A stretch of 32,000 nucleotides of DNA, taken from NCBI GenBank assembly GCA_030606485.1, contig JAUWGH010000004.1, forward strand, positions 180,001 through 212,000, in the 5' to 3' direction. This document shows, piece by piece, positions 6,159 through 10,018 of the stretch. The translations under genes and the position numbers were made by a program. How positions within the stretch are numbered: the stretch's first letter is position 1; every line of letters starts with the position of its first letter. This stretch comes from Promethearchaeota archaeon (GTDB lineage: Archaea; Asgardarchaeota; Lokiarchaeia; Sigyniarchaeales; SOKP01). The notes beneath the pieces were generated by a model. It was not told where the DNA came from. It saw only the letters and a program-made list of their open reading frames with translations, and did not search any database.

Positions 6159-6560
6159 TTATGATGGTAATACCTGCTCTTTAAATTTATTAATTGAATC
6201 TAACGCTTCTTTAATTAAGAGGTCAACATTTTCTTGTTTTAATGTTTGTTCCGCGATACTAGAAAATGAATCTAAGTTTTGGATTAATTGCTCAATTGAA
6301 TCAATGGCTAAATTTTTTTGAAGTTTTTCTAATTCAATCGTTACATTTTTACCAATACTTTCTAAAGTGGAAATATGAGCAGTACCTCCATCTTCTATCT
6401 GAAATTTAAGATCACCAAATTGTTTAGAAAGATTGGATATTTTTTCTTCAATATTTTTATTTAAGCCATCTAATGATTCCTTTAAACCTTGAATTGCATT
6501 GCCTAACTGAGCGATTCTTTTATAAATATTTTGTAATAAATCGGTAAGCATTTCCGCCAT
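6159..6560 (-). CDS. Small all-helical coiled-coil protein, probable paralogue of 5709-6137
   Basis: 133-aa ORF with heptad pattern; the N-terminus resembles that of the neighbouring gene. Confidence 0.75.
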   Translation of the reverse strand: MAEMLTDLLQNIYKRIAQLGNAIQGLKESLDGLNKNIEEKISNLSKQFGDLKFQIEDGGTAHISTLESIGKNVTIELEKLQKNLAIDSIEQLIQNLDSFSSIAEQTLKQENVDLLIKEALDSINKFKEQVLPS

Positions 6561-6770
6561 AAATCATCATCACATTATATTAAATATTGAACTTTTTTTG
6601 TATAACCATCTAAGAGTTTTTAAGCTTATTATTTTTTTGTTAAAATTAAAAAGATTGTTATTAAATTTATTTTTATTGATTTTCCTAATTCATTGATAAA
6701 TTCAATAAATCATTGTCTTATGTTAATAAAATTTTTATTAATTTAACAATTAAATTGATAATAGAACAAT

Positions 6771-6786
6771 AAGAAAAGAATTATTA
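6771..6786 (+). promoter_or_regulatory. Possible BRE/TATA promoter of tRNA-Ile
   Basis: Purine run AAGAAAAGAA followed by TTATTA at -27 to -22 relative to G1 (6808). The AT-rich background weakens the signal. Confidence 0.35.
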
Positions 6787-6847
6787 CAAAAAATTTATTT
6801 AAAAAACGCTCCCATGGCTAAGCTTGGTTTAAAGCGCTGGTCTTATA

Positions 6848-6900
6848 AGACATATAGACATACAAAAAAAATAAGAATTCTGTCTATAAGCATTTAGGAG
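6848..6900 (+). other. 53-nt tRNA intron at canonical 37/38
   Basis: BHB central helix C6842-G6898, T6843.G6897, T6844-A6896, A6845-T6895. Bulges TA|A and AG|A. Internal 8-bp stem TATAGACA/TGTCTATA. Confidence 0.85.
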
Positions 6901-6922
6901 AACCAGAGAACGGGGGATCGAA

Positions 6923-6952
6923 AGAAAGAGCCATTTGGACTCATTCTGATAT
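6923..6952 (+). other. 30-nt tRNA intron at non-canonical 59/60 (T-loop)
   Basis: BHB central helix A6917-T6950, T6918-A6949, C6919-G6948, G6920.T6947. Bulges AA|A and AT|G. Flanked by G6916-C6954 and the GAA/TTC, GAG/CTC intron stem. Confidence 0.82.
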
Positions 6953-6998
6953 GCCCCCTGGGAGCACTAATTCTTTAATTCCGATAAAAAAGAAGATA

Positions 6999-7544
6999 TT
7001 ATTTTTTTTTGATAACGCGAGTTAGTGAAGCAGATATTGCCCAACCAATAGTAAAGAAAAGTAAAATCCATTTCATAAGTGCAACCCAAGAGTGAGATAC
7101 TGCCCAAATATCTGGAAAACCTAGTGGATCTGTAAGCATTGCTAATATAAATCCATTTTCAATAGCATCCAAACTCGCTGCAATAATTCCTAAAATAGCA
7201 ATTAAGAAACCTGACTTCCTCCATCTTGTGCTTTCGTTAAATTTTCTAGCAATAATTAAAGCAAGAGAGAAGATTAAAATCCCATAACTAACCATAAACC
7301 CGTAATCGAGTATTTCTGCGATTCTATAGTTATTTATATCCACTGTATTCATTGTATTAAAGTGGGACTTAATAATTTCACCACTAAATGATAGTTGACT
7401 TTCTATATAATTTACTGGATAATTTGATATAATGGAAAAATAAGTCATAATGGGATAAACAATAAACAGAAGAATTATACTAAAAATTAATAATACTCGA
7501 TTTTTTTTAGTAGATGGCCAATCAGATAATTTCTCTAAAAACAT
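6999..7544 (-). CDS. Uncharacterised 4-TM integral membrane protein
   Basis: Four hydrophobic segments, with intramembrane-type motifs LDYGFMVSYG and LDAIENG. Confidence 0.7.
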   Translation of the reverse strand: MFLEKLSDWPSTKKNRVLLIFSIILLFIVYPIMTYFSIISNYPVNYIESQLSFSGEIIKSHFNTMNTVDINNYRIAEILDYGFMVSYGILIFSLALIIARKFNESTRWRKSGFLIAILGIIAASLDAIENGFILAMLTDPLGFPDIWAVSHSWVALMKWILLFFTIGWAISASLTRVIKKK

Positions 7545-9901: not shown

Positions 9902-10018
9902 TGGCGGCCTCTGAGGGGAATCGAACCCCTACTCCTTCGCAGAGTAAGTGGATTTCTTCAGATCTCTTTAAAGTCTCTTGAAGTCCATTGTCTGAGACCA
10001 CTCAAACCGTCAGAGGCC
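9902..10018 (-). tRNA. selC: tRNA-Sec(UCA), 9/4 fold, with 24-nt intron (9954-9977); CCA encoded
   Basis: 9-bp acceptor GGCCTCTGA/TCAGAGGCC plus G73 and CCA. 7-bp D-stem GTTTGAG/CTCAGAC with TGGT loop. Anticodon TCA at 9981-9979. Long variable arm TACTC...GAGTA. 4-bp T-stem GGGG-TTCGATT-CCCC. Spliced length 93 nt. Confidence 0.95.
9954..9977 (-). other. 24-nt tRNA-Sec intron at 37/38
   Basis: Intron GAGACTTTAAAGAGATCTGAAGAA. Exon CTTC(32-35) pairs with intron GAAG. 3-nt bulges AA|G and AA|A. Outer helix AGA/TCT. Strict BHB. Confidence 0.9.

Follow-up and report, generated by a model that had tools for sequence, protein, structure and literature searches.

A tRNA-Ile(UAU) gene with two bulge-helix-bulge introns as the probable AUA decoder of a Lokiarchaeial genome

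The window, a stretch of 32,000 nucleotides (nt) that was analyzed as a whole (C2:180001-212000), belongs to the genome of a Promethearchaeota archaeon (class Lokiarchaeia, Asgard), which comprises 3.75 Mb on 13 contigs, is rated 100% complete, and has a GC content of 29%. DNA runs containing this stretch originate from metagenomes of cold seeps and marine sediments. An AT-rich gap of 438 nt, bounded by the minus-strand ORFs 6159-6560 and 6999-7544, houses a tRNA-Ile(UAU) gene on the plus strand (6808-6966). An identical copy of this gene is located on a contig of Promethearchaeota archaeon isolate 6H3_1. The precursor contains two bulge-helix-bulge (BHB) introns and has a spliced length of 76 nt. 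The individual parts are as follows:

6808..6847, plus strand: exon 1, comprising the acceptor 5' strand, the D-arm, the anticodon stem 5' strand, and the loop from C32 to A37 with UAU; conserved in orthologues
6848..6900, plus strand: intron 1, 53 nt, at the canonical position 37/38
6901..6922, plus strand: exon 2, comprising A38, the anticodon stem 3' strand, the variable loop AGAAC, the T-stem 5' strand GGGGG, and the T-loop from A54 to A59
6923..6952, plus strand: intron 2, 30 nt, at the non-canonical position 59/60 in the T-loop
6953..6966, plus strand: exon 3, comprising G60, the T-stem 3' strand CCCCC, the acceptor 3' strand UGGGAGC, and the discriminator A73

The acceptor stem is formed by GCUCCCA (6808-6814) and UGGGAGC (6959-6965), followed by A73 at 6966; CCA is not encoded, the genomic bases at this place being CTA. 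The 5' part further comprises U8 and G9, the D-stem GCUA/AAGC, an 11-nt D-loop including GG, and G26. The anticodon stem CUGGU leads into the loop C U UAU A, with the anticodon TAT at 6844-6846 and A37 at 6847, and the loop is completed by A38 (6901) once the transcript is spliced. In the raw gene, the stem partner ACCAG is located 54 nt downstream of this loop, and 37 nt lie inside the T-stem GGGGG/CCCCC, compared to the usual 7. The initial annotation had described a complete cloverleaf with the TAT anticodon, A37, A38, A73, C4-G69, and U12-A23. Re-reading of the window sequence confirmed all of these bases and pairs (C4 at 6811 with G69 at 6962, and U12 at 6819 with A23 at 6833); the cloverleaf, however, forms only after the removal of two introns, which had been left unstated. 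The exons stand out by a GC content of 56% versus 29% for the genome. The spliced T-loop (6917-6922 plus 6953) reads AUCGAAG, with A54 replacing the usual U54, and with G60.

Both introns were examined by the strict hBHBh' criterion, i.e., a helix of 4 bp with a 3-nt bulge at either end, the bulges being on opposite strands, and with an outer and an inner helix beyond them. Each intron passed an explicit pairing test with 4/4 central, 2/2 outer, and 2/2 inner pairs. For intron 1, the central helix is formed by C32 U33 U34 A35 and 6895-6898, the bulges are U36 A37/A and A G/A38 (with the stroke at the exon–intron boundary), the anticodon stem acts as outer helix, and the inner part contains an 8-bp hairpin. 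For intron 2, A54 U55 C56 G57 form the central helix with 6947-6950, A58 A59/A and A U/G60 make up the bulges, and the T-stem serves as the outer helix. Orthologues lacking the T-loop intron encode ...GGG AUCGAAG CCC..., which is identical to the T-loop predicted here after splicing. As several other genera of the order encode this same loop intron-free, AUCGAAG can be regarded as a conserved trait.

Standard tRNA finders did not detect the gene. For the raw window, ARAGORN gave no tRNA call, and Rfam yielded nothing tRNA-like at 6700-7100, neither at the gathering score nor at E ≤ 10. When both introns were removed in silico, ARAGORN called a tRNA-Ile(tat) with a standard cloverleaf. We therefore attribute the failure of ARAGORN and of the Rfam covariance model on the raw gene to the two introns. 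The call after splicing, together with a likeness to the tRNA-Ile(GAU) of the same genome, agrees with the earlier identification as tRNA-Ile(UAU). As a practical warning, automated annotation would declare this genome unable to decode its ninth most frequent codon. The sole Rfam tRNA match in the raw window was a tRNA-Sec on the minus strand (9906-10018), which scored 47.1 bits (gathering score 47). It carries an insertion of about 24-25 nt immediately 3' of the UCA anticodon, and the genome-wide ARAGORN run called it SeC(tca) with a 24-nt intron.

To assess conservation, the precursor was compared with 60 relatives by BLAST, which recovered the 5' exon and the first part of the intron across many genera, and 300 genomes of the phylum were subsequently searched for the 14-nt pattern GCRCNGGTCTTATA (positions 24-37). 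The pattern was present in 85 of 91 genomes of the window's family (f1) and in 7 of 9 genomes of the sister family (f2), nearly always as one copy. Ten matches were found outside the order, and the seven that were inspected represented coding sequence or other non-tRNA contexts. Within the order, all 30 distinct orthologous loci carry an insertion immediately 3' of the anticodon, and many contain extra introns in the D-loop, the variable region, or the T-loop. Compensatory changes occur in the acceptor, anticodon, and T stems of the orthologues. Promethearchaeum syntrophicum MK-D1, which is in culture, encodes an orthologue with a single 50-nt intron on its chromosome (NZ_CP042905.2; L104:5467-5590, minus strand), and this gene is recognized by the Rfam tRNA model with 49.8 bits (gathering score 29). 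Given the GC-rich exons, and since about 90% of the sampled genomes of the order conserve the gene as a single copy with compensatory changes in its stems, it is not a product of chance.

A possible C instead of T at position 6844, which the initial annotation had raised, was checked as well. Two other species-level genomes of the genus contain the stretch with 100% and 98% identity, T34 is present in every orthologue, and a contig from an independent run covers the gene without a difference at 6844. Due to this agreement, the T is not an assembly error. Regarding the additional introns, many of the f1 loci L085-L095, L120, L135, and L159 have a D-loop intron that resembles a partial duplicate of the D-loop (...AGCTTGGTTAAC...GCTTGGTCAAC...). 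One of these loci, L135, is labelled 'Hodarchaeota'; we rejected this label as evidence for Hodarchaeales, as its tRNA belongs to the f1 type and hardly differs from that of a Promethearchaeota MAG.

The intron-1 hairpin (window 6855-6890; alignment columns 19-60) is kept across two families with many compensatory changes. For 20 orthologues, RNAalifold applied to the anticodon stem and intron 1 revealed the anticodon stem and the 8-bp intron hairpin, with double compensatory changes in 10 of 14 pairs. The hairpin loop starts with (A/G)NACA in nearly all orthologues and with AUACA in this gene. A guide RNA of the C/D-box or H/ACA type within the introns was considered and dismissed, since both a C box and a 3' ACA architecture were absent by eye. 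Automatic BHB splicing of the orthologues worked for about one third of the loci, with about 200 candidate BHBs per locus arising from the AT-rich flanks, and many orthologues have relaxed BHB motifs or a 38/39 register.

The genome encodes the enzymes expected for such splicing. We identified two EndA-family genes with a tRNA_int_endo domain (199 and 207 aa; 104 and 67.6 bits) and one gene for RtcB (579 bits). The EndA pair (C10:67064-67297 and C10:670301-670549) is consistent with an alpha-beta heterotetramer, and Asgard archaea have been assigned an alpha-beta endonuclease with an L1 loop that tolerates non-canonical introns (PMC5829648). Introns are frequent in this genome, which applies to 26 of the 38 tRNAs called by ARAGORN. 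With respect to the transcript, the run searches revealed the gene in no run recorded as RNA, and one run labelled 'RNA-Seq' contained a single contig of 311 nt over the gene, which is unspliced, extends into the flanks, and probably represents DNA. Three metatranscriptomes of the same studies contained no match to the gene, which was counted as evidence neither way.

Discrimination between AUA and AUG poses a classic difficulty in the genetic code, which bacteria solve with lysidine, most archaea with agmatidine, and eukaryotes with inosine and a pseudouridylated UAU anticodon. In ORFs of ≥ 300 codons, ATA amounts to 35 per 1000 codons and 33% of the Ile codons, and ranks ninth among all codons, in line with the heavy use of ATA noted in the initial annotation. 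To decode it by the agmatidine route, TiaS and a tRNA-Ile2(CAU) would be needed. Three TiaS queries, namely TiaS_FLD (PF08489), TiaS_TCKD (PF22641), and a full-length TiaS of 442 aa that was taken from a different Asgard genome and includes the four TiaS domains, produced no match in this 100%-complete genome, and matched the archaeal control genomes in 4 of 4 cases. Furthermore, no third CAU tRNA was found in the genome by ARAGORN, the Rfam tRNA model, or two purpose-written scans, a search that a doubly split gene (anticodon loop plus 3' half) would escape. In the scans, an anticodon arm with CAU, UAU, or GAU had to be accompanied by fitting acceptor and T stems, and introns were tolerated in the D region, 3' of position 37, and in both the variable region and the T-loop. 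Only three credible genes emerged, i.e., the UAU gene and two genes with CAU; these two are given below along with the tRNA-Ile(GAU) gene:

C6:44349-44448: initiator tRNA(CAU), with A1-U72 and the anticodon stem CAGGG/CCCUG
C7:37222-37359, plus strand: elongator-Met-type tRNA(CAU), with the anticodon stem CCAGA/UCUGG, about 29 nt inserted in the D-arm, and an intron of 34 nt at 37/38
G000:C2:369030-369125, minus strand: tRNA-Ile(GAU), with a 20-nt intron at 34/35 (BHB 4/1/2), the T-loop UCCAAAU, and C at position 55

The CAU gene on contig C7 is taken to be the elongator Met tRNA. Genomes of TiaS-positive Asgard families contain two non-initiator CAU types each by means of a generic 5'-half pattern, one of which resembles the C7 gene; by the same pattern, a C7-like gene is the only non-initiator CAU type in genomes of the Loki families. 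The C7 gene is located 14 nt downstream of another intron-containing tRNA, and its D-arm is nearly identical to that of the UAU tRNA. We also considered the tRNA-Ile(GAU) gene as a second source of UAU, as it can be read CT...TATAA in another register, and rejected it: that register reaches a BHB of 1/1/0 only, versus 4/1/2 for the GAU register. With neither TiaS nor a third CAU tRNA found, and with no BHB-backed splice turning GAU into UAU, the UAU gene is the sole candidate for reading AUA. The initial annotation had proposed that missing tiaS and tRNA-Ile(CAU) would support a replacement, and this is the pattern we obtained, which argues that the UAU tRNA replaces the agmatidine route.

The distribution of TiaS extends this picture beyond a single genome. 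TiaS was found in none of 106 sampled genomes of the class (0/91 in f1, 0/9 in f2, and 0/6 in the remaining families), whereas other Asgard families retain it in 24/27, 65/71, 19/19, 9/9, and 6/6 genomes. At the level of order and class, the UAU gene and TiaS are thus complementary. TiaS was also not found in 25 sampled genomes of five Asgard families outside the class (f8, f17, f18, f21, and f25). In these families, the Loki-type UAU pattern had no match, and the generic UAU/CAU 5'-half pattern, which is defeated by D-arm introns, revealed no convincing UAU tRNA. In family f12, at least nine TiaS-positive genomes share a tRNA-like 5' half that ends in a UAU loop (stem UUGCU, loop CUUAUA). Two examples are the following:

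G201:C130:18685-18717: UAU-type 5' half
G130:C68:3746-3778: UAU-type 5' half

Because this 5' half is shared by TiaS-positive genomes, TiaS and a UAU tRNA may coexist in f12.

Taken together, we consider it probable (roughly 0.85) that the locus is a functional tRNA-Ile(UAU) gene and the only AUA decoder of the cell, and that it represents a class-wide replacement of the route via TiaS and agmatidine-tRNA-Ile2(CAU). According to this proposal, a precursor of about 160 nt would be transcribed, the EndA pair as splicing endonuclease would cut at both BHB motifs, RtcB would join the three exons, and CCA would then be added. IleRS would charge the resulting 76-nt tRNA; the Ile identity is suggested by the UAU anticodon and the similarity to tRNA-Ile(GAU). 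U34 would pair with the A of AUA, and misreading of AUG would presumably be avoided. The whole class would have abandoned the agmatidine route in favor of the UAU tRNA.

Some features of the locus could also be expected of a decaying or non-functional tRNA-like remnant, with AUA being read otherwise, e.g., by an undetected tRNA-Ile2(CAU) together with an unrecognized enzyme. The gene is missed by the standard finders, A54 takes the place of U54 in the T-loop, and no transcript was seen in the runs examined. Decay is, however, hard to reconcile with two perfect BHB motifs and with a single-copy gene that two families have kept while all of its stems, and the intron helix as well, underwent compensatory changes. 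A54 itself is conserved in several genera, including orthologues without a T-loop intron, and an alternative reader of AUA would have to operate in a class in which the TiaS domain was found in none of 106 genomes, while a third CAU tRNA was not found. We therefore regard a remnant as very improbable.

A different question is whether the gene resembles its eukaryotic counterparts by descent. The initial annotation had suggested a eukaryote-like acceptor stem, based on the start GCUCC, and had stated that a grouping with archaeal GAU/CAU isoacceptors instead of eukaryotic UAU ones would speak against it. The suggestion was not supported, and by this criterion the tRNA falls with an archaeal GAU isoacceptor. 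The acceptor 5' strands of the orthologues include GGUCCAG, GGUCCAU, GGUCCCG, GGGCCAU, GCUCCCG, GGAUCCG, GGAUCCA, GGGAUCG, GGGAGAU, GAGCCUA, and others, and in each case the 3' strand is complementary. Most orthologues begin with GG, C2-G71 is restricted to few genera, and C4-G69 is missing in most of the sister family. Among the tRNAs of this genome, the closest to the UAU tRNA is the archaeal isoacceptor tRNA-Ile(GAU) with 77% identity, compared to ≤ 69% for every other. The two share A73, C4-G69, the T-stem GGGGG/CCCCC, and nearly the whole D-arm. With GCGCCCG, the acceptor of tRNA-Ile(GAU) starts with GC as well, so that this start is a feature of the genome's Ile tRNAs. The likeness of the two sequences would fit a shared synthetase or a descent from the GAU gene, as described for Korarchaeum (PMC6000648).

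To place the anticodon arm in a wider context, a pattern of D-loop and anticodon arm was scanned in one genome per prokaryotic species. The same anticodon arm was found in at least 119 DNA stretches, mostly from Woese-, Micr-, Nano-, and Pacearchaeota (DPANN), but also from Marsarchaeota and others. Among the matches listed, a 37/38 intron is present in most and absent from 11 of 108. The earlier statement that UAU is reported in only a few archaeal lineages holds for the literature searched, whereas the genomes contain the same anticodon arm in these at least 119 stretches. As the anticodon arm and the UAU solution are widespread in TiaS-poor archaea, they are neither a link between Asgard archaea and eukaryotes nor a speciality of these two groups.

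A eukaryote-like AUA decoder by descent would have received its acceptor stem and its 37/38 intron from an Asgard ancestor, and the intron might serve pseudouridylation. This would accord with the insertion right after the anticodon in 30 of 30 orthologous loci, with the pairing of U34 and A35 inside the BHB, and with the covariation that conserves the intron-1 hairpin. Eukaryotic tRNA-Ile(UAU) genes contain introns, too, and yeast Pus1 forms pseudouridine at positions 34 and 36 on the intron-containing precursor only. Moreover, the tRNA-Ile(UAU) of the red alga C. merolae has D-arm, anticodon-arm, and T-arm introns (PMC9602550). Against this, the acceptor stem is variable among orthologues and its GC start is common to the closest paralogue, and an intron is not distinctive where 26 of 38 called tRNAs carry one. 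The combination of a 37/38 intron and the same anticodon arm is common in DPANN archaea, and TiaS is retained by most other Asgard families. Only one gene of the TruA/Pus1 family was found in the genome, as in other archaea, which is uninformative on anticodon pseudouridylation. We consider such a descent unlikely. Equally doubtful is a broader scenario, in which the loss of TiaS and the switch to an intron-bearing UAU tRNA occurred early in several Asgard lineages, including the whole of Lokiarchaeia, the eukaryotic cytoplasmic tRNA-Ile(UAU), together with its obligatory intron and an anticodon modification that depends on this intron, descends from there, and the intron-1 hairpin is recognized by an anticodon modifier acting on the precursor.

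If the gene is the functional AUA decoder, as we favor, an entire Asgard order including MK-D1 decodes AUA with a plain UAU tRNA, while the agmatidine enzyme was found nowhere in the sampled class. In the literature searched, TiaS-independent UAU decoding is reported for Nanoarchaeum, Korarchaeum, and ARMAN-2/-4/-5 among archaea, with no report for Asgard archaea, which turns the way U34 is modified in these organisms into a concrete and testable question. Among the closest known cases are ARMAN-2, -4, and -5 (DPANN), which possess a tRNA-Ile(UAU) and lack TiaS and tRNA-Ile(CAU) (Fujishima et al. 2011; PMC3239211). The ARMAN gene also has a 37/38 intron with a strict hBHBh' motif, which is cleaved in vitro by an archaeal endonuclease, and an intron at 59/60 occurs there in another tRNA (PMC3239211). 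ARMAN, however, belongs to another phylum, the Loki gene combines two introns in one gene, and the endonuclease is probably of the alpha-beta type here, in contrast to epsilon2 in ARMAN. Nanoarchaeum equitans and Korarchaeum cryptofilum use a tRNA-Ile3(UAU) in place of tRNA-Ile2(CAU) (PMC8450103, PMC6000648). In Korarchaeum, the UAU gene has its nearest relative in the tRNA-Ile(GAU) of the same genome, and the UAU copy bears an intron (PMC6000648), both of which parallel the Loki genome. While these papers describe a rare and species-specific gain, the gene is order-wide here, and TiaS was not found across the class in the sampled genomes. The cytoplasmic tRNA-Ile(UAU) of eukaryotes (yeast, human, and C. 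merolae) likewise combines UAU with an anticodon-adjacent intron that pairs with the anticodon, and C. merolae has multiple BHB-type introns (PMC9602550); its anticodon is modified to pseudouridine-A-pseudouridine, and, as a difference, the Asgard acceptor stem varies among orthologues. Direct reading of AUA without an enzyme modifying C34 is also known from the tRNA-Ile(UAU) of Mycoplasma mobile, which is bacterial and intron-free, and where TilS, not TiaS, is the enzyme that is absent (PMC3575796). TiaS-independent decoding of AUA is thus a strategy already known from other archaea, to which the present analysis adds the Loki order including MK-D1.
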